20,000 nucleotides of DNA from the IMG/VR virus record IMGVR_UViG_2897109615_000002, positions 107,162 through 127,161 of that record. The stretch is one strand, 5' to 3'. Source of the DNA: an uncultured virus (IMG/VR IMGVR_UViG_2897109615_000002). Lineage: Duplodnaviria; Heunggongvirae; Uroviricota; Caudoviricetes. Made by a program: the position numbers and the translations under genes. Positions 636-18,664 of the stretch are shown piece after piece. Each line of letters opens with the position of its first letter. Position 1 is the first letter of the stretch. A model generated the notes under the pieces. That model was not told where the DNA came from. It did no database searches and saw only the letters and a list, made by a program, of their open reading frames with translations.

Positions 636-649
636 TGAGTGGCTTTTTT
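621..649 (+). terminator. Rho-independent terminator after ORF 9-635
   Basis: AAAGTCGCTCA-ATAA-TGAGTGGCTTT hairpin (with G-U pairs) running into a T tract and overlapping the stop codon. Confidence 0.7.
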
Positions 650-698
650 ATGTGCCCTAAAAATCACTCTCCCCTACTCGAAAGGATGTGACCTATAT

Positions 699-3600
699 TT
701 GAGTCAAGATTTAAAGATCATACTCACACCCAAAGCTGATACTTCTTCAAAAACTGTCGAACAGTTAAATCAGCAAATTAAATCTTTAGAGAAAAAGCTA
801 AATTCCCTTAATTTAAAGACCAATATTGATGCCTCTGCTTTAAAGACTCTCAACGAATTCTCCTCTGCAGTTGACACTTATCAAAAACATCTCAAATCCT
901 TCAATCAAACAGTTAAAGAAACTACAACGATTACCAGAAATGCTGATGGCACTGTTGAAAAGCTTACGCAGCAGTATAAGAAAAATGGCGAAATCATTCA
1001 GCGTGAAACAAAGACCATAGACAATCGTAATCAATCATTACGTGAACAAACACAAGAAGTTAACAGGCTTGCTCAAGCCACTGAAAAACTTGGTCAGGTA
1101 CAGAAAAGAACAGAACAAAAGAATTCTCAAGGACAAACAACGAGAGTTACTCAAAAGAACCGCAATGGCTTCGATGATATAACTTATACGACTGACCCAA
1201 AAACAAACGCTACTTCATCAAAAGTAACAACGAATTATGATCAACAACGAAACGCTATTGAACAATTAAAGCTGGATTTAGAAAAACTTAGACAACAAGG
1301 AATTGTAACCGATACTACCCTCTCTTCTCTTGGCCGGAAATTAAACACTGCTCAAACAGCACAACAAATTGAAGCATTACAAAACAGAATTAAGATGCTC
1401 GATGATAAGTCTGCTGCTGTGGCGAAAAATAATGAACTCAGAAAAACTATTGAGTTGTATCAACGCCAAGCGCAGGTAAACGTACAAAACCTTAATACAC
1501 GTTACGGCGATACAATGGGTGCCGGCAATAGACAAGCTACTCAAGATTATTTAAATGCAGTAAATAGTCTTAATGTAAGTGCCGGCGGTAGTAATATCAG
1601 ATCTCAAATGCAAAGCTTGAACATGCAATTCAGGGAATTAGCTTCAAATGCTCAAACAGCGTCTAGTCAAGCCTCGTCTTTTGGTGCGGAGCTAACTCAA
1701 GCTTTCAAAAGCATGTCTACATATTTAATCTCCGGTTCTTTGTTCTATGGTGCTATATCTGGGCTCAAGGAAATGGTCTCCCAGGCTGTTGAAATTGATA
1801 CTCTAATGACAAACATCAGACGTGTAATGAATGAGCCTGATTATAAGTACAATGAGCTACTCGAGGAATCAATAAACCTAGGAGACACCCTTTCAAACAA
1901 GATCACTGACATACTTCAAATGACTGGCGATTTCGGGCGTATGGGGTTCGATGAAAGTGAACTGTCCACTCTAACAAAAACCGCTCAGGTACTTCAAAAC
2001 GTCTCTGACTTGACTCCTGACGACACAGTTAACACTTTAACTGCCGCAATGTTAAACTTCAATATTGCTGCGAATGATTCTATCTCAATTGCAGATAAGC
2101 TTAATGAAGTCGATAACAACTATGCTGTAACTACTCTTGACCTAGCGAATTCGATTCGAAAAGCAGGAAGCACCGCTTCCACTTTTGGCGTTGAATTAAA
2201 CGATCTGATTGGTTATACTACAGCAATTGCAAGTACCACCCGTGAATCAGGAAACATTGTTGGTAACTCACTTAAAACCATTTTTGCACGTATTGGGAAT
2301 AATGACAGCTCAATTAAAGCCTTAGAACAGATTGGTATTTCTGTGAAAACTGCCAGTGGTGAGGCGAAATCTGCTACTGATTTAATTAACGAGTTAGCAG
2401 ACAAATGGAATACCCTCAGCGATGCTCAAAAACAAAATACCTCAATAGGTGTAGCGGGCATTTATCAGCTTTCTAGATTTAATGCCTTGATGAATAATTT
2501 CTCCATATCACAAAATGCAGCGACCACTGCAGCTAATTCCGCAGGAAGCGCTTGGAGTGAACAGCAGAAATACGCTGACAGTTTACAGGCAAGATTAAAC
2601 AGGCTGTCAAACGCATTTACAGAAATGTCGGTTGCCTCAAGTGAAGCCTTCATCTCTAATAGCATTGTTGTTTTTGCAGATGCACTTAAAGGATTAATGC
2701 AAACAAGTGCTCAAATTACTAAAACAGTCGGGCTCCTCCCTCAAGTTTTTGGTTCTGCGACAACTGCAATCCTGCTTTTCAACACCTCTCTTCGTACAGC
2801 TACCATCTCAACTGGAATGTCTGCAATATCAACCCTTAAAAATCTTGTCTTAAACTTTAATGCTGTTGGGCTTGGTGCAACAACAGCTTCAGCTAAAACT
2901 GCAGTTTGGACACGAGTGGTTAATGCTTCAAGCGTTGCGATGAGCAATCTAAAGAAAGTCGCAGTCTCGACAAGCGCTTTTTTAGCAGGCAGTTTTCTTC
3001 CAATGGCAGCTATGGTTGGACTTGGCGTCGTTATTGAGAAACTCATTTCCTCTTATTCTGAATTAAAACAAGCTAGGGAAGACTTTGAACAAGCTAAAAC
3101 TACTAGCATTGAAGCAATTACAACCAATAAAGATGAAACTGATAAACTGATTAGCCAATACAAAGAACTGCAAAAGGCTAAAGATGGCGGGGCTTTATCA
3201 GCCAATCAGGAGCAAGAATACCTACAAGTAACACAACAATTAGCACAAACATTCCCGAATTTGATCGCTGGTTATGATTCTCAAGGGCAAGCAATCTTAA
3301 AGAAAAACCAAGCACTTAAGGATGCTATAAAGTACACTGAAGACCTTAGTAATTTAAACAAAAAAGACATTCAAACAGGTGCCAATAGTAACTTTAAGCA
3401 AAGCTTAAAAGACATTGATAAACTCAATGATAAGATTAAACAGTATAAGCAGGTTGCTGATTATTATAAAAACGGCAAGAGCTGGGATATTTTCTCTTCT
3501 GAAAATGACAAAAAAAATCAAGGTATTAAAGCTGAACAAGATGCACTACGTACTGAACAAGAGCTATCCAGCTCACAGGCTAAAATTAGAGAGCAAGTGC

Positions 3601-5099
3601 AACAGACAATTGATGCCTTTAACTCAATAAAGATAAATCCGAATCTTTCAAGGGAAATATCTAACGCATTCGATAAAATCGACTTCAGCAAAATGAATGC
3701 AGATGAACTTGAGTCATTTTCAATAAATGTTTCGAAATACATGGATAATATCCAAAAAGCTCTGCAATCGGGCAATAAAAATAATTTTGATTCCGCCTCT
3801 AAAAGCTTAGAACAGCTCGTTAATCAATATATGAGTGGCAAAGATAAAGCTAATGGTTTGGCTTTATCTTATGATGACCTTAAAACTGCCATTGACTCTA
3901 CAAATGATTCTGCACAAACTGCAAAAGTAACATGGGATGAAAATGGTGAAGGTGTAGATGCATTAGGTGAGCAAGTCGGGAATTTATCTGACAAGCTCAA
4001 AGAGGCTAAAGGTGATTTTGAAGCAATTAAAGGAATCATCGATGATTTAGTTGAATCGAAACAAAATGATGCTGCTATATCTGCCATTCAAAATGAAGCT
4101 TATGACACTATGTCTGACAGCATCTCCCCTTTAAATAGCCTCCTTGAGAAAATGTCTGAAGGTAAAAGTATATCTGCAACAGAAGCCATGAAGCTTATTC
4201 AGAAAGAACATGATCTTGCTGATGCAATTTCAGTTGAAAATGGTGTTGTAAAAATCAACAGAAATGCAGTTGTTAAGCTTCGGGACACAAAACTCAAAGC
4301 TTACAATGATATGCAACAATCTGTAAGACAAGATCTAATTAATCAGGCTAATGCATTAAACAAAAAGATTAATATGTATAAGTCTGAAGTCAAGGCTATC
4401 AAGACTGTTCAAGACGCTTATAAAATGAAGTCTGAGCTTGAAGATAACAAGAAAAAGATATACGACGAACTAAAAAAAGGGAACAGTGGTGCGCTGCAGT
4501 TCCTACCGAAAACACAGGATGATTTAAATCAGGTCACTGATATCACTGATCAGCTTAAAGAGCTTGATAAACTAGCCGATTTGGCTTCAACTTCCCTATC
4601 TGAAACAGGAACATCTCTTGATGACCTGTCTTCTTCAAGTGATAAAGCCTCTGAGGAAATGAAAACATCTATGTATGTGGCTGATAAATACAAGGAAGCT
4701 CTGGAGAAAGTCAACGCTGAAGTTGAAAAGTACAATAAGCAGGTAAACGACTATCCAAAGTATTCTCAAAGTTATCGAAATGCCCTGCAGAAAGAAATTA
4801 AAGCTCTCCAACAAAAGAAAAAGCTTATGCAGGAGCAAGCCAAACTCCTCAAGGATCAAATTAAGTCAGGGAACATTACACAATACGGTATTGTAACCTC
4901 TTCCCTCTCCGCTGGTTCATCTTCTGGTAGTTCTTATACTTCCGGTGGCGGGTCTTACTCCGGTAAATACTCCAGTTACATTAATTCTGCGGCAAGTAAA
5001 TACGGTGTTGATCCAGCTCTAATTGCAGCTGTGATTCAGCAAGAATCTGGTTTCAATGCAAGAGCTCGTTCTGGAGCTGGAGCTGCTGGTTTGATGCAG
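699..5099 (+). CDS. yomI: Tape measure protein / peptidoglycan hydrolase YomI (CwlP), exon 1 (1467 codons)
   Basis: SD-like AAAGGATGTG (681-690) precedes an in-frame TTG at 699. Contains a TP901-type tape measure core, hydrophobic central segments and long coiled coils. It ends in the first half of the lytic transglycosylase: AAVIQQES (catalytic Glu codon 5043-5045) ... GAAGLMQ. Confidence 0.92.
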
Positions 5100-5370
5100 G
5101 TGCGACCGTAAGGTCATGTAAGAAATTTTCTTTAGCAAGAAACAGGTACGATCACGTCTCCTGTCATCACTCAACTTATCCGGGAAGGAAACTGAACGGG
5201 GAGTGTAGCATGTTGAGAAAGCCATAAGTTATCGAAATACCACGGTACGACTGAATGGCAAGATGAAAAGTTGTAAACAAGGATGAAAGCTAAACTGCTT
5301 AAACGATAGTCCGAGGTGATTAAAGGGCCATCTATAACGGAAGGTATTTATAAACGTTATACAACCAATA

Positions 5371-5399
5371 CCCTATTGATTAATTGCATGTCAATCGGG
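5371..5399 (+). other. Intron domain I EBS1/delta stem-loop
   Basis: Stem CCCTATTGA/TCAATCGGG. The loop contains TAATTGCAT (5381-5389), complementary to the ligated junction ATGCAG|TTG with two G-U pairs. It lies ~285 nt into the intron, similar to EBS1 in LtrB. Confidence 0.75.
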
Positions 5400-5657
5400 A
5401 GTGATCTAAAGGTTGACCGTCTTCAATAAGAAGAAAAGGACGAACGTCGCATCCGAAATTACAACGCGCTTGTTCTTACATGTGCTAAACGGTGATTACC
5501 TAAGTTGGAATGCTTAATAGCTATGGCATTTAGTGCCTGAATATCCAATAAGGTAACGGAGTTTCCGTAGTAGTCCGAGGTAGGGAAAGCCTACCACATG
5601 GCGAAGGGAAACAGCTTATCATGTCTTACACAAAAATGGAAAGGAGCGTGAGGCTCT

Positions 5658-7481
5658 ATGAGAAGTCCACAAGTCGTGTTAGACAGTCTAGCGAGACAAA
5701 CAACTCGTTCGGATTATAAATTTAAACGTCTATATAGAAATTTGTACAACACGGAATTTTATCTCTTAGCCTATTCAAACATCTATTCTAAAGAAGGAAA
5801 TATGACAGAAGGTGCCGACGGTCAAACTATCGACGGTATGAGCCTAGAACGCATTGAGAATTTGATTAACAGTCTTAAAGATCACAGCTATCAACCAAAA
5901 CCATCGAAACGAACATATATCCCAAAGAAGAACGGGAAAAAACGTCCATTGGGTATACCATCATTCGAAGATAAGTTGCTACAGGAAGTAGTGAGAATGC
6001 TTCTTTCAAGCATCTATGACAAAACGTTTTCCACAGTGTCCCACGGGTTTCGGCCTAATCGAAGTTGTCATACTGCTCTAACCCAGGCAAAAAATAAATT
6101 CACTGGTACTAAGTGGTTCATAGAAGGCGATATAAAAGGTTTCTTTGACAACATAGATCATCATATCCTTATAAACATTCTCAGAAGGAAAATTGATGAC
6201 GAAAACTTTATTAGTCTCATATGGAAATTCCTCAGAGCAGGCTTTCTTGAAGATTGGGTGTATCGTAAAACTTACAGTGGAACACCTCAAGGTGGGATCA
6301 TAAGCCCCATACTGTCGAATATCTACTTGAATGAACTGGATCAGTTCATCGAGAAATATAAAACATCTTTCGACAAAGGTAATTCTCGCAAGAGATTGAC
6401 AGAGTACCGCACAAAAGAAACGCGGCTCTTCCGAGCGAGAAATAAATACAAAAACAATTGGGACGACATGAACGAACAAGAAAAAGAAGATGCAATAGTT
6501 CACCTTAAACAACTTAAAAATGAAATGATGGAATTACCATATAAAGACCCTATGGACGATGGTTTTAAAAGGTTGCAATACGTGCGATACGCTGATGATT
6601 TCATTATCGGTGTTATTGGTAGCAAAGAGGACTGTGAAAGAATTAAAAAAGACATCACAGAATATCTTATCCAAGAGCTCAAAGTCGAGCTATCTCAAGA
6701 GAAAACACTAATCACCCACTCATCCAACAGAGCAAGATTCTTGGGATATGACATAAAGGTCAGTCATGATCCTTTAACTTCAAAACGCACCAGTAGTGGA
6801 CACAAGCAACGAACCAGATCAATGGTTTGTGAACTTCTTGTCCCTCATGAAGCGTGGAGAAACAAGCTTATTGAATACAAAGCGATAAGAATAGATTCGA
6901 AGAATCAGAAATGGAAATCAATGCACAGATCCCATCTTCTTCAAAATGATGACTTAGAGATCCTTGCGATATACAATGCTGAAATCAGAGGGTTATACAA
7001 CTATTATCGCTTAGCAAATAATGCATACAAGCTTCATCGCTTTAGTTACATTATGGAATACAGCATGTACAAAACATTTGCTTGTAAGTACAAATCAAGC
7101 GTTAGCAAAATCATCAGTAAGTATAGTGTGAATGGCAAATTTGCCGTAAGGTATCAGACGAAGAATGGGCAAAGAATTTCCTACTTTTACAATGATGGGT
7201 TTAGAAAGCAAACCGAAATTTCCAAAGATATCTCTATAGACGCCGTCCCGATGGGACGAGGAATTATTTATAATAGAACGAGTTTGATTGATAGACTTTT
7301 AGCGGAAAAATGCGAATGGTGCAATAGTACAAACGTGCCACTTGAAATTCATCACGTTAGGAAGCTAAAAGACCTAAAAGGCAAGAAAAGATGGGAAAAG
7401 CGCATGGTTGAAAGAAAACGTAAAACCATGGCGCTTTGTAAAGACTGCCATCTCAAATTGCACAACGGAAAGCTAGATTGA
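5658..7481 (+). CDS. ltrA: Group II intron-encoded protein: reverse transcriptase/maturase with C-terminal HNH endonuclease (LtrA-like)
   Basis: RT motifs RPLGIP, SHGFRPNRSCHTAL, EGDIKGFFDNIDH, GTPQGGIISPILSNIYL, YVRYADD (YADD 6588-6599) and FLGY. X domain EIRGLYNYY. Endonuclease domain CEWC...EIHHVRKLKDL...CKDCHLKLH. Confidence 0.96.
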   Translation: MRSPQVVLDSLARQTTRSDYKFKRLYRNLYNTEFYLLAYSNIYSKEGNMTEGADGQTIDGMSLERIENLINSLKDHSYQPKPSKRTYIPKKNGKKRPLGIPSFEDKLLQEVVRMLLSSIYDKTFSTVSHGFRPNRSCHTALTQAKNKFTGTKWFIEGDIKGFFDNIDHHILINILRRKIDDENFISLIWKFLRAGFLEDWVYRKTYSGTPQGGIISPILSNIYLNELDQFIEKYKTSFDKGNSRKRLTEYRTKETRLFRARNKYKNNWDDMNEQEKEDAIVHLKQLKNEMMELPYKDPMDDGFKRLQYVRYADDFIIGVIGSKEDCERIKKDITEYLIQELKVELSQEKTLITHSSNRARFLGYDIKVSHDPLTSKRTSSGHKQRTRSMVCELLVPHEAWRNKLIEYKAIRIDSKNQKWKSMHRSHLLQNDDLEILAIYNAEIRGLYNYYRLANNAYKLHRFSYIMEYSMYKTFACKYKSSVSKIISKYSVNGKFAVRYQTKNGQRISYFYNDGFRKQTEISKDISIDAVPMGRGIIYNRTSLIDRLLAEKCEWCNSTNVPLEIHHVRKLKDLKGKKRWEKRMVERKRKTMALCKDCHLKLHNGKLD

Positions 7482-7489
7482 TAAGTGGA

Positions 7490-7584
7490 GAGCCGTATAC
7501 ATCGAGAGGTGTACGTACGGTTCGGAGAGGAGTTCTTGGAAACCTAGCATAGAGATATGCCAAGGCGCCGGGTTCTTACTCTAC
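7490..7584 (+). ncRNA. Group II intron catalytic domain V and branch domain VI
   Basis: 34-nt DV GAGCCGTAT-ACATC-GAGA-GGTGT-AC-GTACGGTTC with AGC triad, GNRA loop and AC bulge. The DVI stem has a bulged A 7 nt from the 3' end (IIA spacing), and the intron ends in AC. Confidence 0.93.
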
Positions 7585-10074
7585 TTGATGCCATCCACAG
7601 CTAAGAGCTTGGGTGTAAGCAATGTTTATGATCCTTATCAGAGCATTATGGGTGGTACGAAATATCTAGCCCAACAACTAAGCAAATTTGGTGGCAATGT
7701 TGAGAAAGCACTTGCTGCTTATAACGCAGGGCCTGGTAATGTAATTAAATATGGCGGCGTCCCTCCCTTCAAAGAAACTCAGAATTATGTTCAGAAGATC
7801 ATGTCAAACTACACCAAGTCAATGACTTCCGCTAATTCCTCCATTGCAAGCTACTACACGAAGAACAGCGCTTTTAGAATAAGTTCTAAGTATGGTGCAC
7901 AAGATGGCGCTTACCGATCAACTCCACATAAAGGTGTCGACTTCGCAGCAAAAGCTGGAACCGCAATCAAATCGGTTCAGAGTGGGAAAGTTCAAATTGC
8001 TGGCTATAGTAAAACTGCCGGTAACTGGGTTGTCATTCAGCAGGATGATGGAAAAGTTGCTAAGTATATGCATATGCTTGATACCCCTTCTGTTAAAGCC
8101 GGTCAAACTGTTAAAGCTGGTCAGACCATCGGTAAAGTTGGCAGTACGGGTAATTCAACAGGAAATCACCTTCATCTTCAAATTGAGGAAAACGGAAAGA
8201 CCATTGACCCTGAGAAGTATTTAAAAGGTGTCGGTACATCTATTTCAGATGCATCTCAAGCTGAAGCAGAACGACAGCAAGCAATAGCACAAGCCAAATC
8301 CGATCTTCTCTCCCTCCAAGGTGACATTGACTCAGTAAACGATCAGATACAAGAGCTCAGATATGAGATCGTTCAATCGAAGCTCGATGAGTATGACAAA
8401 CGTATTGGTGATTTTGATGTAAGAATCGCTAAAGACAAAGCCCTCGCTAGTCATTATCTGAGCGATAGTAAAGAGTTCCGTAAGTATACAAACGATCAGA
8501 AAAAAGCTTTAACTGAACAGCAAAAGATTCAGAGTCAGAAGGTTTCTTTTATTGAAAAAGAAATCAAAACAAACAAAACTTTGAATGCTGCTCAAAGAGC
8601 ACAGCTTGCTGAGGAATTAAAACAAGCTAAGATTGATCTCATCAATTTCCAAGAAGAAGTAAGAGAACTTCAGGGACAGCTCATCCAATCCAAAGTTGAT
8701 GAAACGCTTAACGGCATAGAGAAATCAACCAAGAAAACTGAATCCAAGCTTAAAGATGTTGGAAACAAAATATCCATGACCGAGGAAGATAAAGACAAGG
8801 TTAAATATTATAGCCAACAGATTAAGCTTATTCAGCAACAGCAGACTGAAGCGAAGAAGTATATCAAACAGTTGGAAGCACAAAAGAAAGCTGCCAAAGG
8901 GTTCCCGGATATTCAGAAACAAATTACTGAAGAAATCGAGAACTGGAAAGACAAGCAGAAGGATTACAATCTGGAGCTTTACAACACAAAGAAATCAATC
9001 AAAGATGTGTACAAATCCCTTGCTGATGAAGTTGTCTCCATCTACAAAGAGATGTACGAAAAGATGCGTGATATTGAATTAAAAGCGCATCAAAAAGCTA
9101 CGCAAGACTTGATTGATGAGATTGATAAAACTGATGATGAAGCTAAATACCAAAAAGAGCTCAAAGAAAAGAATCAGGCTATTCAGGAAACCAAAGATAA
9201 ACTAAACAAACTATCCCTTGATGACTCTGATGAAGCAAAATCACAGGTTAAAGACTTGGAAAAGCAACTTCAAGAACAGCAAGAAGCATTAGATGAGTTT
9301 CTTAAAGATCGTGAAAACAGTAAACGAAAAGAATCGTTACAAGATCAGCTTCAAAAAGATGAAGATTCAATTAACAAGAAATATGATGATCTCGTCAATG
9401 ATGAGCGTGGGTTTAAGGAACTTGAGAAAAAGCTAATGGATGGGAAGATTACTGATATTGCTAAGCAACTGAATGAATTCTCTAAGTTCATTAACAGCAA
9501 TATGGAGTCCATTGGGAAAAGCATCTCTAATAACCTTATCGATAAGCTTAAAGAAGCCTCTAATGCCCTTAATACTGTGACCAAAGGCAATAAAACTGGA
9601 AAAAAGGTATCTTCTTTTGCATCGGGTGGATACACAGGAACAGGACTCGGCGCAGGTAAGCTCGCCTTCCTTCATGATAAAGAGCTTATCCTAAATAAAA
9701 CAGATACTGAAAATATGCTTGAAACTGTAAAGCAAGTTCGCAATCTGTCTAATAACGATTTGAATAATGAAACACCTAAATGGGGGCAAGGTGGAAAATT
9801 AGCAGCTTTGATTAACAAAGGGATTACCTCTATTCCATCAATAATTCCGAATATTAATCAATCCAGTCTTTCTAATAGTTTGATACCGAGTATTCAAAGC
9901 CTCTCTTCCCCACCAGATGCTACTAAGTCAGTAAACGGCACTGTAAACAACAATAATTTTAAAGCTACATTTAACATTAATGAATCAGAAAATCCTCAGA
10001 AAACAGCTGATTTTGTATTCAATAAATTTGCAAATGGTCTTAAAAACAAGGGCATAAATTTCAACAACTCATGA
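7585..10074 (+). CDS. yomI: YomI (CwlP) exon 2: rest of lytic transglycosylase, M23 peptidase, coiled-coil C-terminus
   Basis: LMPSTA...ALAAYNAGPGNV...ETQNYV completes the SLT fold. M23 motifs HKGVD (7927) and HLH (8167-8175) follow, then a typical tape measure C-terminal FASGGYTG...LHDKELIL motif. Confidence 0.92.
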   Translation: MMPSTAKSLGVSNVYDPYQSIMGGTKYLAQQLSKFGGNVEKALAAYNAGPGNVIKYGGVPPFKETQNYVQKIMSNYTKSMTSANSSIASYYTKNSAFRISSKYGAQDGAYRSTPHKGVDFAAKAGTAIKSVQSGKVQIAGYSKTAGNWVVIQQDDGKVAKYMHMLDTPSVKAGQTVKAGQTIGKVGSTGNSTGNHLHLQIEENGKTIDPEKYLKGVGTSISDASQAEAERQQAIAQAKSDLLSLQGDIDSVNDQIQELRYEIVQSKLDEYDKRIGDFDVRIAKDKALASHYLSDSKEFRKYTNDQKKALTEQQKIQSQKVSFIEKEIKTNKTLNAAQRAQLAEELKQAKIDLINFQEEVRELQGQLIQSKVDETLNGIEKSTKKTESKLKDVGNKISMTEEDKDKVKYYSQQIKLIQQQQTEAKKYIKQLEAQKKAAKGFPDIQKQITEEIENWKDKQKDYNLELYNTKKSIKDVYKSLADEVVSIYKEMYEKMRDIELKAHQKATQDLIDEIDKTDDEAKYQKELKEKNQAIQETKDKLNKLSLDDSDEAKSQVKDLEKQLQEQQEALDEFLKDRENSKRKESLQDQLQKDEDSINKKYDDLVNDERGFKELEKKLMDGKITDIAKQLNEFSKFINSNMESIGKSISNNLIDKLKEASNALNTVTKGNKTGKKVSSFASGGYTGTGLGAGKLAFLHDKELILNKTDTENMLETVKQVRNLSNNDLNNETPKWGQGGKLAALINKGITSIPSIIPNINQSSLSNSLIPSIQSLSSPPDATKSVNGTVNNNNFKATFNINESENPQKTADFVFNKFANGLKNKGINFNNS

Positions 10075-15040: not shown

Positions 15041-17593
15041 TTGAACGACAATTTAATTCCCGTAAACACAATGGGTTATATGGACGAAGAAACAGAGCAA
15101 TGGATACCCATTGATGCTATAGGGTTAAAATCAAATAATATCAGATATACTGCAGACGATATTCAAGAGGCTTTTGATAAAGCTTCTAAGGATATTAAAA
15201 ACGTAATAAGCACAGTCGATTCTGGTTTAACAGATATCACAAACACTATTGGAGACATTTCAAAAATCCCTGCCTCCGGCGCAACTGTTGTTGATAAAGT
15301 TTTAAATGAATTTATCAGACGAAGTGTTAATGTTCAGGATTTCGGAGCTAAGGGTGACGGGGTTACTGATGACACTAAAGCTTTTGAAGCTGCTTTTGCA
15401 AGTGGGAAACGAGAGGTTTTTGTTCCTGCAGGCATTTACATGGTTCAAGGATTGCACATCCCCTCTTATGTCAGACTTTACGGTGTTGGTTCAGGGTCTA
15501 TTATCAAACTTCATCCTTCAGCTACTGGAACATCTTGCGTTCTAACAAACAGTGACTACACTAACGGAAACGAATATATCTTAATTGAAGACTTAGACCT
15601 TGATTGGAATTTAGACAAAAAGGATAACATCATTACAAACGGCACAAATGCAAACTGTGTGGGCATTGTTAACTCTAAATTTGTTCGGGTTAGAAACGTC
15701 AATGCTCGTAATCCAGGTGTACACGGTTTTGATGTAAGCTCCCCTGTTTGGAATTCTTCCACTGATACTAATGGAGCTGAAAAATATCAACCCAACGGTA
15801 GCAAATATGTGTGGATTGAAAATTGTACTGCAACTAATTATGGTGACGATGGCTTCACAACTCACTATTCTGATTACATCTTCTTCACTAACTGTTACGC
15901 CTATGACGCAAATGGATCTGCGCACAGCAAAGGAGCCTCGAATTCAAACGGTTTTGAAATTGATGATGGCTCTAAAAACGTGTGGCTTGTGAACTGTTAC
16001 AGCCGAAAAAACTGTAGAGGTTTTGAAGTTAAGGCTCACAACAGAGCACCAGCAGCAAGAAACGTAAACTTAATTAACTGCTATTCCGAAAATGATATCC
16101 GTGCATTTGACTTTAGACACATCGGCTTCCACCTAGCTTCTGAAAAACCCTCCCCAAATGCATTTGACATTAATGTCGTTAACTGCACTGCACAACATCC
16201 TATTTTCAGTGACCTTTATCAAGGTTTAAATCCTCGCGCACTTGTTATTTCCGCTTATAGAAATGTCAACGTATCAAACTTCAACGCAATTGGTGACCCG
16301 ACATATGATTACAAAAATACTACAGTAATCTCTACTCAATATAAGAGCAGAAATATCAACCTAAGCAACATCACTGTTTCGGGGTTTACAACAGCAAGTA
16401 ACGATATCTATGTAATCGGTGGAGCTCAAAAATCAGACAATGTAAACATCTCAAATGTAACCATTGACCAATCTGCTTTAGTAGGTATTGCTGTTGGAAG
16501 TAAAGTTGATTCAGTTAATATCAGTAACGTTAACATGACGGGAACAAACAAAGCAGGTTCAATAGGTGTTTATTGCACTAACTCACAGGCCAATATTAGC
16601 GCTGCGATGTGTAAACAATACGCTACTCCCAGTAAAATTGCCGGAAAAACCTACACGTTTATCCCGAATAATTTCAAAGGCGGTCTACGCGGGGCTACGA
16701 CTTCTGGCTATGCTAAAACAAATACTAGTGCAGTATTAGCTTCATCGGGTGAGCCTCAAGCACTTGGGGATGCTACTTTAGTTGGTGCCACTACTGGAGG
16801 ATGCGTTGCAAAGGGAACAAGAACCAACGTTTTGGTTCATCAGGCGGAAGCTCTGTAGACGGATCTCGTAGCGGTGTTTACAACTCCAATGATTCTCACA
16901 TCGAGGGGCAAAATGTATCACGTGAAATCCACGCTTCTGGCGGTGTAAAGCTTGGTGAAAATGATCGCTATATGGTGGTTGGCGGATATGGCGCTACTCC
17001 CTCTAGAGCAAATATTAAATGGATGCTAAACTCCATGAATGGAGATATAACATCTGCAGGGAAGATGAATGGTGGAGCAACCTTTAGTGATTACGCTGAG
17101 TATTTTGAAAGCCTTGACGGAAAAGCAATTCCGACAGGGACAATTGTCACTCTTGAAGGAGCTAAAATTCGCCCAGCGAGAAAAGGTGAAGATGTACACG
17201 GAGTAATTCCGAAACTGCAGGAACTATATTAGGCGGAGCTGATATTCACTGGCAAGGCAGGTATTTAAAGAACGAGTTCGGTGGATACATATATGAAGAT
17301 GTGGTCAACCAGAAACTGGTGATGTTAAGAAACTGCCTAAAGTAAACCCTGAGTGGATTGAAAAAATAGATTACGTCCCTCGTGAAGAACGTCCTGAATG
17401 GAATATAGTAGGATTGCTTGGACAGGTTTATGTGAAAGTGGACAGTACTGTTTCTGTGGGAGATCGAATTGAAGGTAATTATGGAATCGGCACAAAAACA
17501 GAAGACAGGTTTTACTCTTGGAAGGCTATGGAGATTGTAACTCCATATTCAGACAAGCTCGGTTATGGCATTGCCATCTGCTTAATTAAGTAA
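15041..17593 (+). CDS. Beta-helix tail spike/appendage (pectate-lyase-like, yomE position) with C-terminal Peptidase_G2-type intramolecular chaperone; three single-base deletions in this sequence
   Basis: VNVQDFGAKGDGVTDDTKAF beta-helix start with parallel beta-helix repeats. The downstream frames encode DYAEYFES, HWQGRYLKNEFGG and YVPREERPEWNIVGLLGQVYVK, resembling the phi29 gp12 C-terminal domain. Adding 1 nt each at ~16833, ~17208 and ~17310 gives one 851-aa ORF ending at TAA 17591-17593. Confidence 0.8.
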
Positions 17594-17729: not shown

Positions 17730-17764
17730 GTGCTCAAATTTAATTTTTAGGAGAGATGTTTAAT

Positions 17765-18664
17765 ATGGCTATTCAAGTAAGAGAAAATCTTGTCTCAACC
17801 AGCAAATACTCTATTAAGTGTCCGTATACGTTATCAGCCTCTTATATTACATTTCATAACACAGCCAATGATGCATCAGCAGACGCTGAAATTCGCTACA
17901 TGATCGGCAACAACAATGAAGTTTCTTATCACTTCGCCGTTGATGATGAAGAGGTCGTCCAAGGCTTACCTACAAATCGAAACGCATGGCACACTGGTGA
18001 TGGATCAGGTGCGAATTCAGGAAACCGTACTTCTATTGGTGTAGAGGTTTGCTACTCCAAATCAGGTGGAGAGCGTTACAGAAAAGCTGAAGCGTTGGCT
18101 ATTAAGTTTATTGCACAACTCCTTAAAGAACGTGGCTGGGGTGTAGATCGAGTTAAAAAGCATCAAGACTGGTCTGGCAAGTACTGCCCGCATCGAGTTC
18201 TTGATGAAGGCCGTTGGAATGCTGTTAAAGCTGCTATTGCTGCTGAATTGAAAGCACTGGACGGAAATACTTCTTCCTCATCTTCAAAGCCAACAAACGT
18301 GTTGGGGTATATCAAACGCATGCAAACTCTAAAGGTGCTACATACAGGGTTACAAATAAATGTGAAATACATTAAAAGTGCTGAACTTGGACAATCAACC
18401 CAAAGCCTAAATCCACTTCTAAGCCTAAAAGCAGTGGTATCAAATCTGTAGGCAAAATTAAAATTGTCGGTGTACAAAGCGCTGCAATCGTTATGGACAG
18501 ACCCGATAAAAAACAAAGCGAAGAATCTCGGCACTGTGAAGCTAGGTGACACACTCAGCATTTCTGGCTCAGTGAAAGGGTCAAACAATGCTAAGGGTTA
18601 CTGGGAAGTTATCTACAAAGGTAAACGCGGCTACATCTCAGGACAATTTGGGTCAAAAATCTAA
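17765..18664 (+). CDS. Endolysin: N-acetylmuramoyl-L-alanine amidase (Amidase_2, XlyA/CwlA-like) with SH3-like cell-wall-binding region; interrupted by a compensating indel pair
   Basis: Amidase motifs ITFHNTAN, SYHFAVDD, AWHTGDG, IGVEVC and KHQDWSGKYCP. ORFs 17756 and 18464 share a frame. The intervening 18403-18510 reads KPKSTSKPKSSGIKSVGKIKIVGVQSAAIVMDRPDK in a shifted frame. The C-terminus GYWEVIYKGKRGYISG is SH3b-like. ATG 17765 fits the SD spacing better than 17756. Confidence 0.85.

Follow-up and report, generated by a model that had tools for sequence, protein, structure and literature searches.

A group II intron interrupting a gene for a cell-wall hydrolase, the product of orf14, is found in the conjugative transposon Tn5397 of Clostridioides difficile. 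According to the available text of PMC4430133, this intron is spliced in vivo and its intron-encoded protein (IEP) is required. In phages, by comparison, group II introns were deemed essentially absent before 2025; an earlier survey (Tourasse & Kolsto 2008, PMC2504315) detected, according to the part of it available, no group II intron in a recognisable prophage. The assertion of the earlier note on the present locus that such introns have seldom been described in phages is nevertheless out of date, given the survey of phage group II introns by Merk, Jones & Eddy (2025, PMC12350094). The accessible sections of that work present 20 curated cases from phages, among them a IIA intron of the SPbeta-like phage BUCT083, and report group II hits in 9,229 IMG/VR contigs.

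The locus described here lies in a window of 20,000 nucleotides (the whole stretch of DNA that was analysed), in which the two parts of a phage tape measure gene flank an intron:

699..5099, + strand: exon 1 of a yomI/cwlP-like tape measure gene; 1467 codons, TTG start, ends ...GAGAAGLMQ
5100..7584, + strand: group II intron of 2485 nt; GTGCG at 5100-5104, ...CTAC end at 7584
5109..5111, + strand: in-frame TAA continuing the exon 1 frame, three codons inside the intron; the ORF runs from 639 to 5111
7585..10074, + strand: exon 2 of the tape measure gene; 829 codons plus stop, encoding the rest of the SLT-family domain and then Peptidase_M23; T7585 is delta'

From its domains, homologues and neighbours, the host gene is identified as the YomI/CwlP-type tape measure gene of an SPbeta-like Bacillus prophage, with the intron on the sense strand. 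In the Pfam search, exon 1 encodes a PhageMin_Tail domain (411-601) followed by positions 2-42 of the SLT profile, and exon 2 resumes the same profile at positions 44-116 and continues with Peptidase_M23. The TTG start at 699 agrees with the N-terminus annotated for phi3T_24, with identity at 76 of 94 residues, and a protein search gave 84% identity to the phi3T and SPbeta-like homologues over the C-terminal 300 aa encoded by exon 1. The phi3T_24 protein, annotated as similar to SPbeta yomI, is 2294 aa long; the joined exons encode 1467 + 829 = 2296 aa, and both this length and the exon coordinates were correctly given in the earlier note. Downstream of the tape measure gene, Pfam identifies DUF6558 and YOMG_N proteins, i.e., yomH-/yomG-like tail genes.

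The intron interrupts the SLT-family domain in phase 0, separating the codons for Q and L in GLMQ|LMP, as had been claimed. Aligned to 200 residues of the phi3T homologue, which lacks the intron, exon 1 reaches as far as residue 100 (GLMQ) and exon 2 takes over at residue 101 (LMP), so that phi3T is contiguous over the insertion point with zero residues lost or gained. The description of the interrupted sequence as a lytic transglycosylase motif holds in that an SLT-family motif is split, but the enzyme label does not, because two papers citing Sudiarta 2010, at least in their available text, list the corresponding SLT-family domain in SPbeta YomI (= CwlP) as a muramidase/lysozyme. Given that the TAA at 5109-5111 is in frame with exon 1, an unspliced mRNA would terminate the protein there.

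A search for intron-less alleles, which had been suggested as a check, found them in abundance: 75 of the 77 related IMG/VR tape measure loci are uninterrupted exactly at GLMQ|LMP, whereas one of the remaining two bears the intron (it is on the same contig as the second provirus copy discussed below, L004) and the other has no upstream flank. Some empty alleles match the window letter for letter over the 15 nt before and the 12 nt after the insertion point. Megablast of 800 nt of flank from each side against 50,697 phage records returned zero matches; the relatives are only 75-78% identical at the DNA level. Among 11 loci compared over the 400 nt immediately flanking the site in either direction, none represents a near-identical intron-less "before" allele, the best being ~5% different. 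The locus is best read as a discrete insertion of 2485 nt at a site that nearly all related phages keep empty.

The elements of the intron and its recognition sequences in exon 1 are as follows:

5087..5091, + strand: candidate IBS2 TGGTT in exon 1; 5 bp, found by eye, with candidate EBS2
5094..5099, + strand: IBS1 ATGCAG in exon 1; pairs 6/6 with EBS1
5100..5657, + strand: ribozyme domains I to IVa, from a 20-sequence alignment; the IEP ribosome-binding site and start codon are at the 3' end
5363..5367, + strand: candidate EBS2 AACCA, found by eye; complementary to 5087-5091
5383..5389, + strand: delta A5383 and EBS1 TTGCAT (5384-5389) in a hairpin loop of domain I
5658..7481, + strand: IEP of 607 aa with reverse transcriptase, maturase (X) and HNH endonuclease, from Pfam and the LtrA alignment
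7490..7523, + strand: domain V with the AGC triad at 7491-7493, from the RF00029 alignment
7526..7584, + strand: domain VI with the predicted bulged branch A at 7578, from the RF00029 alignment, followed by the 3' end ...CUAC

Bacterial group II introns have the consensus ends 5' GUGYG and 3' AY, a domain V (DV) of 34 nt with the catalytic AGC triad, and a domain VI (DVI) with a bulged branch A 7-8 nt from the 3' end. The Rfam model of DV/DVI, RF00029, matches positions 7488-7584 with 61.9 bits (E 3e-10; gathering score 40) and is the sole gathering-level Rfam match across the window. In its alignment the unpaired UA of DVI corresponds to 7577-7578, so the branch point is assigned to A7578. 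This agrees with the branch point proposed in the earlier note, and the GTGCG...AC boundaries and canonical DV/DVI reported there are equally evident from the ends as read, the RF00029 score and the AGC at 7491-7493.

In contrast to RF00029, the Rfam models of domains D1-D4 (clan CL00102) have zero matches in the window, even at E <= 1. These models appear to miss this intron lineage, given that the published BUCT083 IIA intron likewise has "None" in the D1-D4 column (Merk et al. 2025, PMC12350094, in the portion available). The fold of domains I to IVa was instead derived from an alignment of 20 related introns. The consensus comprises 121 pairs, 60 of which are changed on both sides, with 98.3% of the cells paired; shuffled controls reach 37.8 +/- 2.9 such pairs (0 of 500 attain 60) and slid partners 9-16, values to be read with the caveat that the fold was predicted from the same alignment and that the 20 sequences are mutually related.

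Within this fold, the stem of the EBS1 hairpin (alignment columns 321-350) shows compensatory changes in 8 of 10 pairs. Among 19 related introns that fall into four site classes, EBS1 pairs with the IBS1 of its own site at a mean of 5.68 of 6 positions, as against 2.23 of 6 in 220 cross-class pairings. Immediately upstream, delta A5383 pairs with delta' T7585; this A-T (A-U) pair is found in all 19 introns and, being invariant, provides no covariation. The location of delta directly 5' of EBS1 is a trait of IIA introns, IIB and IIC introns using a separate EBS3. The candidate EBS2-IBS2 pairing consists of 5 bp recognised by eye only and is weaker in the L004 allele, and the alignment yields no convincing EBS2 covariation in the sister clade.

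The IEP matches RVT_1 (E 6.9e-38), Intron_maturas2 (3.9e-14) and an AI2M-like HNH domain (1.8e-21) in Pfam, and has the YADD and CxxC...HH...CxxCH motifs. It aligns full length with LtrA (5g2x_C; query 5-600, chain 5-593, E 2.4e-162), which is by far its top PDB match at 544.6 bits, compared with at most 150 bits for the reverse transcriptases of IIB and IIC introns. These domains, the similarity to LtrA and the placement of delta 5' of EBS1 bear out the original identification of an intact group IIA intron with a full RT-X-En ORF. The tests on the RNA, on the protein and on the empty sites are independent and concordant, far beyond what chance would produce. Accordingly classified from its sequence, the segment 5100-7584 is a structurally intact LtrA-like (IIA, "mitochondrial-like") bacterial group II intron, in which every sequence and structure part required for splicing and mobility appears to be present.

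Taken together, we consider it probable, at roughly 85%, that an intact IIA intron in an SPbeta-like tape measure gene is spliced and capable of retrohoming. In this account, the IEP would be translated from the late transcript via its own ribosome-binding site in domain IVa and would bind the intron, while EBS1 (5384-5389) together with delta (5383) would hold both exons. The 2'-OH of A7578 would then attack the 5' splice site, and ligation of the exons would yield the 2296-aa tape measure protein. The excised lariat-IEP particle would reverse-splice into empty GLMQ|LMP sites in the DNA of co-resident SPbeta-like phages (retrohoming), and this would be the route by which the intron reached two alleles.

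The RNA data bear on this account to a limited extent. In the contigs of RNA libraries X1, X3 and X5 there is no spliced exon joint, only unspliced or intron-only pieces; this check covers four of 24 listed runs, and contigs drop rare forms, so the result is no evidence of absence. The raw-read run, X21, was picked by its species label only and gave 0 reads on the stretch, and thus provides no test of splicing. In X3, the intron contig, which extends 23 nt upstream of the intron and 10 nt downstream of it, has a depth of 8.67, as against 2.4-3.7 for the contigs of the flanking exons. This contrast could reflect an excess of excised intron or the presence of the intron in several genomic contexts.

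Of the alternatives, the one that survives best, although we regard it as rather unlikely, holds that the intron splices but that particles form without splicing, the 1467-aa N-terminal part serving as the ruler and the C-terminal muramidase/M23 portion helping only with penetration of the cell wall, so that loss of splicing would lower infectivity without abolishing virions. The PhageMin_Tail domain is confined to exon 1, the two lytic domains are located at the junction or beyond it, and, in the laboratory, some other tape measure proteins can do without their lytic motifs. However, tail length is set by the length of the tape measure, and in well-studied siphophages the C-terminus helps to start tail assembly at the tip; tails built on a product ~36% shorter (1470 vs 2296 aa) would probably be aberrant, and the full-length arrangement is kept in all 75 intron-less alleles. 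Compatible with dispensability, on the other hand, is the listing of virion-associated lysins, CwlP included, as accessory penetration enzymes in the available text of a review.

Less probable still is that the intron is dead or splicing-incompetent, with the tape measure gene knocked out, the prophage decaying and only the truncated 1470-aa product being made. The observations that would fit are the lack of the spliced form in the contigs of the three RNA libraries, a lysin ORF of 231 aa compared with 350 aa, and the state of the tail-spike gene of the window, which three 1-nt deletions, at about 16833, 17207 and 17308, split into three frames, whereas the sister provirus has it as an intact ORF of 849 aa. 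This prophage may thus be defective, or its assembly imperfect, irrespective of the intron, and single-base deletions could be assembly errors. Against this reading, all ribozyme and IEP features tested are intact, the tape measure exons are still open across 4.4 kb and 2.5 kb, and a 99.8% identical copy of the intron resides in a second provirus that is rated 100% complete and in which the tail-spike ORF is intact. If the provirus of the window is indeed decaying, selection for splicing may have ceased; given the broken tail-spike gene, the dependence of virion production on splicing is therefore only hypothetical for this provirus.

The copy in the second provirus (L004), inserted at the same site, is also the main evidence for mobility of the intron. 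The two introns differ at 5 of 2485 positions, whereas the surrounding exons have diverged by 3.4-6% (94-96.6% identical), with 83 of 2442 positions different in exon 1 and, over the 2490 positions of exon 2, 143 substitutions and 6 gap columns (Fisher p = 6e-34 for intron against exons). Such near identity of the intron in two diverged exon alleles points to recent retrohoming and supports the view of the earlier note that the phage is the vehicle of the intron. The exon differences nearest to the junction are at -7 and +24, which argues that there is no co-conversion tract. A further copy, 98.9% identical, is found in another assembly, antisense inside a Tn3-type transposase gene, and is interpreted as an ectopic hop; the intron is apparently still mobile.

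The contrary view, that the two alleles inherited an old insertion vertically and that the intron is just better conserved than the exons, with no recent mobility, accommodates the identical site of both copies and the purifying selection on a structured RNA and its IEP, but is very improbable because selection leaves synonymous change in place and yet the IEP ORF has 0 synonymous differences in 607 codons compared with 132 synonymous (and 18 non-synonymous) codon differences in about 1414 exon codons, and also in view of the empty sites in 75 of 77 related loci, some with target flanks identical to those of the window, and of the ectopic copy in the transposase gene. All 3 differences in the IEP ORF are non-synonymous, a pattern compatible with relaxed constraint in one of the copies.

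The closest relatives of the intron occupy the homologous G-x-M-Q|F-M-P site in genes for SLT-type peptidoglycan hydrolases of other Bacillales. Specifically, eight loci carry introns that are 72-76% identical, inserted at ...G(H/P)(M/L)Q|FMP..., and in the 6 of these that were scanned for exon 2 domains, SLT_2 is present in 6/6, NlpC/P60 in 3/6 and M23 in 1/6. One plasmid copy adjoins a gene annotated as "type IV secretion system protein", whereas the sister-clade loci L014 and L016 are located among ordinary chromosomal genes. Most ORFs neighbouring the sister-clade introns have no Pfam or NCBIfam match, and one has a sub-threshold match to "mobilome membrane protein" (41.6 bits, the cut-off being 120). 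A conjugative-element setting thus holds for some members of the lineage, not for all. The phage probably acquired the lineage, via the shared sequence of the catalytic motif, from a gene for a hydrolase on a conjugative element or a chromosome.

By extension, we would tentatively propose, as a possibility that we consider more doubtful than not, that the lineage is specialised on the nucleotide sequence for the G-x-M-Q|(F/L)-M-P catalytic motif of SLT-type peptidoglycan hydrolases, has crossed between types of mobile elements, from hydrolase genes on conjugative plasmids or elements (as well as stand-alone SLT genes of chromosomes) into the SPbeta-like tape measure gene, and now retrohomes from phage to phage. 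Should this be true, and should splicing be slow or dependent on host factors, the intron could gate tail assembly or give rise to a short ruler-only isoform beside the full-length lytic tape measure protein. With this locus, two matters become testable in a laboratory strain, namely retrohoming between co-resident phages and the possibility that splicing efficiency limits late expression, as it does conjugation in the case of Ll.LtrB. A practical point for annotation is that tape measure genes of this kind are called as two ORFs flanking a "retron-type RT".

Among described systems, a close one is the IIA intron in uvrX of BUCT083 (ON107264), which comes from the same phage genus and the same intron lineage. 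Megablast aligns 44% of the window intron to it at 72.6% identity, and blastn adds further pieces at 71-73%. Both have GTGCG/AC ends, the AGC triad and an RT-type IEP, and lack Rfam D1-D4 matches, but uvrX encodes a Y-family polymerase whereas the window intron resides in a tape measure gene, and the EBS1 sequences differ (TAGCTG in BUCT083, TTGCAT in the window), each fitting its own exon.

The model IIA intron, Ll.LtrB of Lactococcus lactis with its IEP LtrA, shares with the window intron the RT-X-HNH organization, the GTGCG...AC ends, delta directly 5' of EBS1 and an IEP start codon inside domain IV. Each also resides in a gene that its mobile element needs for transfer, in the case of Ll.LtrB the relaxase gene of conjugative elements (PMC1874635, in the part available) and here a phage tape measure gene, with a different target sequence. 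Splicing and retrohoming have been demonstrated by experiment for Ll.LtrB and are predicted from sequence for the window intron. The intron in orf14 of Tn5397 is likewise a group II intron with an RT/maturase in a gene of a mobile element (PMC4430133, as far as its available text goes), albeit of another element in another bacterium.

With respect to the host gene, a parallel is offered by TMP-IVS1/2/3, which interrupt tape measure genes in prophages of the Bacillus cereus group. As portrayed in the accessible text of Tourasse & Kolsto (2008, PMC2504315), these are in-frame elements of self-splicing type, with a stop codon shortly past the 5' splice site and carriage by phages between strains, traits that parallel those seen in or predicted for the window intron; they are, however, group I introns that home at the DNA level with co-conversion, whereas the window intron belongs to group II. 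Clostridium phage c-st, too, has a tail gene with a group II intron, in its case one for a minor tail protein (Table S1 of Merk et al. 2025, in the part available), but that is an ORF-less IIB intron of 683 nt, without an IEP and in another gene, in contrast to the IEP-encoding IIA intron of the window.

The tape measure intron is a clear further example of the phage group II introns first catalogued in 2025 and not a novel type of element. In the portions of PMC12350094 available, it is outside the 20 curated cases, although Table S2 includes the DV/DVI match of its sister copy, uncurated. What appears to be new, as judged from the genomic comparisons, is the occurrence of the same intron in a second provirus and the location of its nearest relatives at a homologous site of SLT-type hydrolase genes. 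To the catalogued introns, this locus adds a well-anchored case in a virion structural gene of genetically tractable phages (SPbeta and phi3T, with B. subtilis as the host), along with sequence evidence suggesting that an intron is now moving among phage alleles, and the shared enzyme motif links the introns of phages with those of conjugative elements.

The tape measure gene of this SPbeta-like Bacillus provirus is interrupted by a real, intact, LtrA-like group II intron (positions 5100–7584, 2485 nt). The IMG/VR provirus is 127,161 bp long and is rated 99% complete; the window is its final 20 kb, and the intron occurs once in the whole provirus. The splice-site sequence reads ...GGT TTG ATG CAG / GTGCGACCGTAA ... 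TTCTTACTCTAC / TTG ATG CCA..., and the elements concerned are the following.

Ending at TAA 5109–5111, plus strand: long ORF that takes in exon 1 (699–5099) (ORF listing)
5380–5390, plus strand: hairpin loop holding the exon-pairing element EBS1 (RNAalifold structure and pairing test)
5658–7481, plus strand: ORF of the intron-encoded protein (IEP), 607 aa (ORF listing)
7490–7523, plus strand: domain V (DV) (Rfam DV/DVI alignment)
7491–7493, plus strand: AGC of DV (Rfam DV/DVI alignment)
7585–10074, plus strand: third ORF, exon 2 (ORF listing)

The group II DV/DVI model is the only one in Rfam with a gathering-level match in the window (7488–7584; 61.9 bits, E 3e-10; gathering threshold 40). 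From the unpaired UA in DVI, the branch adenosine is A7578, exactly where the earlier note had put it. The IEP combines RVT_1 (E 6.9e-38), Intron_maturas2 (3.9e-14) and AI2M-like HNH (1.8e-21) domains, and both the YADD and the CxxC...HH...CxxCH endonuclease motif are present. Its residues 5–600 align with LtrA (PDB 5g2x_C, E 2.4e-162), which is encoded by the model IIA intron Ll.LtrB, whereas IIB and IIC reverse transcriptases match over the RT part only, at ~130–150 bits. Together with the host-gene comparison below, this bears out every detail of the initial observation, down to the sum for the joined product (1467 + 829 = 2296 aa).

The Rfam D1–D4 models do not match the intron even at E <= 1; Merk et al. 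(PMC12350094, Table S1) likewise enter 'None' under D1–D4 for the BUCT083 phage's IIA intron. For the ribozyme part, the 5' 560–640 nt were therefore aligned across 20 related introns, which represent four insertion-site classes, and RNAalifold yields 121 pairs on this alignment, with standard pairs in 98.3% of cells. Sixty pairs persist through changes on both sides, compared with 37.8 +/- 2.9 in shuffled controls (at least 60 in 0/500), and this number falls to 9–16 when the 3' partners are slid by 1–3 columns; these figures are somewhat flattering, given that the introns are relatives of one another and that the structure was derived from the alignment on which it is scored, but the margin over the controls is nevertheless large. 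EBS1 (TTGCAT, 5384–5389) pairs 6/6 with ATGCAG, the last six bases of exon 1, and A5383, just 5' of it, pairs with T7585, which is the IIA arrangement of delta. Across 19 introns, the EBS1 loop tracks the exon (for example, TAGCTG for ...CAGTTG in uvrX and AACTTC for ...GAAGTT at radC-type sites), with a mean EBS1–IBS1 pairing of 5.68/6 at the own site against 2.23/6 in 220 cross-class combinations. For EBS2–IBS2, there is a 5-bp candidate spotted by eye.

Exon 1 encodes PhageMin_Tail and positions 2–42 of the Pfam SLT profile, and exon 2 encodes positions 44–116 followed by Peptidase_M23, so that a single domain is split at one profile position. A search with the C-terminal 300 residues encoded by exon 1 matched 35 records, among which 24 are from Bacillus phages, at 80–90%; identity to the yomI homologues of SPbeta-like phages such as phi3T and BUCT083 is 84%. 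The genes 3' of the tape measure gene encode yomH- and yomG-like tail proteins. In phi3T, the homologue (phi3T_24) is one CDS of 2294 aa, annotated as similar to SPbeta yomI, the N-terminus of which is identical at 76/94 positions to the window read from TTG 699. Within a 200-residue stretch of this protein, residue 100 (...GLMQ) corresponds to the end of exon 1 and residue 101 (LMP...) to the start of exon 2, and the DNA alignment has a gap of 2485 nt at the intron. In family-1 lytic transglycosylases, GLMQ is taken to be motif II; what the Pfam profile positions bear out is its conservation. SPbeta YomI is CwlP, for which papers citing Sudiarta 2010 list a muramidase/lysozyme in the SLT-family domain and a DD-endopeptidase in the M23 domain. 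Hence, the 'lytic transglycosylase motif' of the earlier note carries the name of the Pfam family, not that of a measured activity.

The intron is rare. Among 50,697 phage records, megablast matches BUCT083 alone (72.6% over 44%, in uvrX), and when IMG/VR is scanned with the IEP as protein seed, one other provirus is retrieved (locus L004), with a 100% identical IEP. The IMG/VR scan with exon 2 recovered 77 tape measure loci, possibly not including the window's own record; the intron-less alleles that the earlier note had proposed to seek make up 75 of these, with GLMQ/LMP uninterrupted, whereas one carries the intron, on the same contig as L004, and one lacks the upstream flank.

Comparison of the window with L004
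Intron: 5/2485 differ, 99.8% identity
Exon 1: 83/2442 differ, 96.6% identity
Exon 2: 143 substitutions and 6 gap columns in 2490, 94.0% identity

The contrast between intron and exon divergence gives a Fisher p of 6e-34. Purifying selection cannot explain it, since the 607 codons of the IEP ORF show zero synonymous differences and the exon codon differences are mostly synonymous (132 against 18 non-synonymous). It can be accounted for if one allele or both acquired the intron horizontally in recent times. Exon differences come as close to the junction as 7 nt upstream and 24 nt downstream, so a co-conversion tract is absent, which is what RNA-mediated retrohoming should leave, in contrast to group I homing. 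L004-type intron and allele also appear in contigs of two RNA-library runs (X1 and X3), and pieces identical to the window-type intron in a third, a food-fermentation metatranscriptome (X5). We propose that the intron RNP would retrohome into unoccupied sites in the DNA of SPbeta-like phages resident in the same cell.

A 98.9% identical copy, 15 nt shorter and with an IEP of 602 aa, lies antisense in the DDE domain of a Tn3 transposase (profile 249–331 / 333–389) on a 2968-nt contig of a Thermoflavimicrobium daqui assembly (L008, 250–2719). Its insertion site resembles IBS1 plus the first seven bases of exon 2, and this copy is an ectopic hop. In part of its domain I (roughly window 5160–5260), this copy agrees with the uvrX intron of BUCT083 and not with the window, so that it may be a mosaic.

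The search for IEP relatives in one-genome-per-species contigs found 178, of which 80 were kept; the closest among these, after the ectopic copy, are the introns of L009–L016 and L064, which are 72–76% identical over their whole length. In all eight loci with both flanks (L009, L010, L012–L016, L064), from several Bacillales genera, the exon alignment runs on across the splice sites, and the exons read ...G-A-E-G-H-M-Q / F-M-P-C-T-W/F.... In the six scanned with Pfam, exon 2 always contains SLT_2, followed by NlpC/P60 in 3/6 and M23 in 1/6, and exon 1 has no match. Two plasmid copies (L094, L095; 73–75% identical) fit the same pattern: exon 2 of one is annotated 'M23 family metallopeptidase', and the other, on a Priestia megaterium plasmid, is directly 3' of 'ATP-binding protein' and 'type IV secretion system protein' genes. 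The chromosomal members L014 and L016 are flanked by ordinary metabolic genes. These sites place the tape measure intron in a sub-lineage located where SLT-type hydrolase genes encode the G-x-M-Q/(F/L)-M-P motif, and these genes are conjugation-associated, chromosomal and, with the present case, phage-borne; which way the intron moved between them is something we infer. Wider-family branches occupy RadC-like JAB genes (...HPREV/FKEA..., one member checked) and uvrX.

In a B. cereus-group contig (L041, ~4960–7460), the exon after a radC-site intron meets stop codons within ~70 codons and a second set of intron matches lies at 5808–7458; a second copy may follow close behind the first. The contig L064, labelled a Planctomycetaceae MAG, matches the Metabacillus plasmid pB218 (L094) in the order of its Bacillales-type intron, SLT/M23 gene and PemK toxin, and this bin may be contaminated.

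The tape measure intron is probably active. IEP-assisted lariat splicing of the late transcript would restore the 2296-aa protein, and translation of unspliced RNA would stop three codons into the intron. The condition of the provirus bears on what follows from this. The tail-spike ('pre-neck appendage') protein of phage SPR is a single 851-aa CDS, and that of the sister provirus is an intact 849-aa ORF (L174, 1509–4058, minus strand; 94% DNA identity), whereas the window homologue (15041–17593) falls into three frames (15041–16858, 16801–17232, 17414–17593) through single-base deletions near 16833, 17207 and 17308. The Amidase_2 lysin ORF (17756–18451) encodes 231 aa against 350 in the sister provirus (L174, 293–1345) and 348 in SPR, the alignment being broken beyond ~18300 by a gap of 147 nt and several short indels. 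The tail-spike frames reflect either a pseudogene in a defective prophage or assembly indel errors; in both cases, the dependence of virion production on splicing suggested by the earlier note cannot be taken from sequence. Outside the window, the same provirus has four minus-strand matches to the group I model RF00028 (G000:C1:9033–17871), two of which (88 and 63.5 bits) exceed the gathering score, and accordingly carries both intron types.

We consider this intron worth keeping in view as evidence for ongoing retrohoming between phage alleles and as an element that tracks a hydrolase catalytic motif across element types, in phages that are experimentally tractable. Group I introns have been described at three tape-measure-gene sites in B. 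cereus-group prophages by Tourasse and Kolsto (2008; PMC2504315), who found none of the group II type in a recognisable prophage and asked for the reason. The absence from prophages was overturned by Merk, Jones and Eddy (2025; PMC12350094), who curated 20 phage group II introns and report hits in 9,229 IMG/VR contigs. Three of the curated introns are IIA, that of BUCT083 uvrX among them, and another, of type IIB and without an ORF, lies in a minor tail gene of phage c-st. Their Table S2 contains a DV/DVI hit (13911–13815) on the contig of L004, i.e., the sister copy of the present intron, without host gene or curation. In the portions of the literature consulted, on group II introns with tape measure or with SPbeta, a tape measure gene is nowhere described as the host of a group II intron. 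In Cluster J mycobacteriophages, capsid and tail genes contain group I introns that are reported to be efficiently spliced during late expression (PMC3706429), which is a precedent for the tolerance of introns by structural genes.
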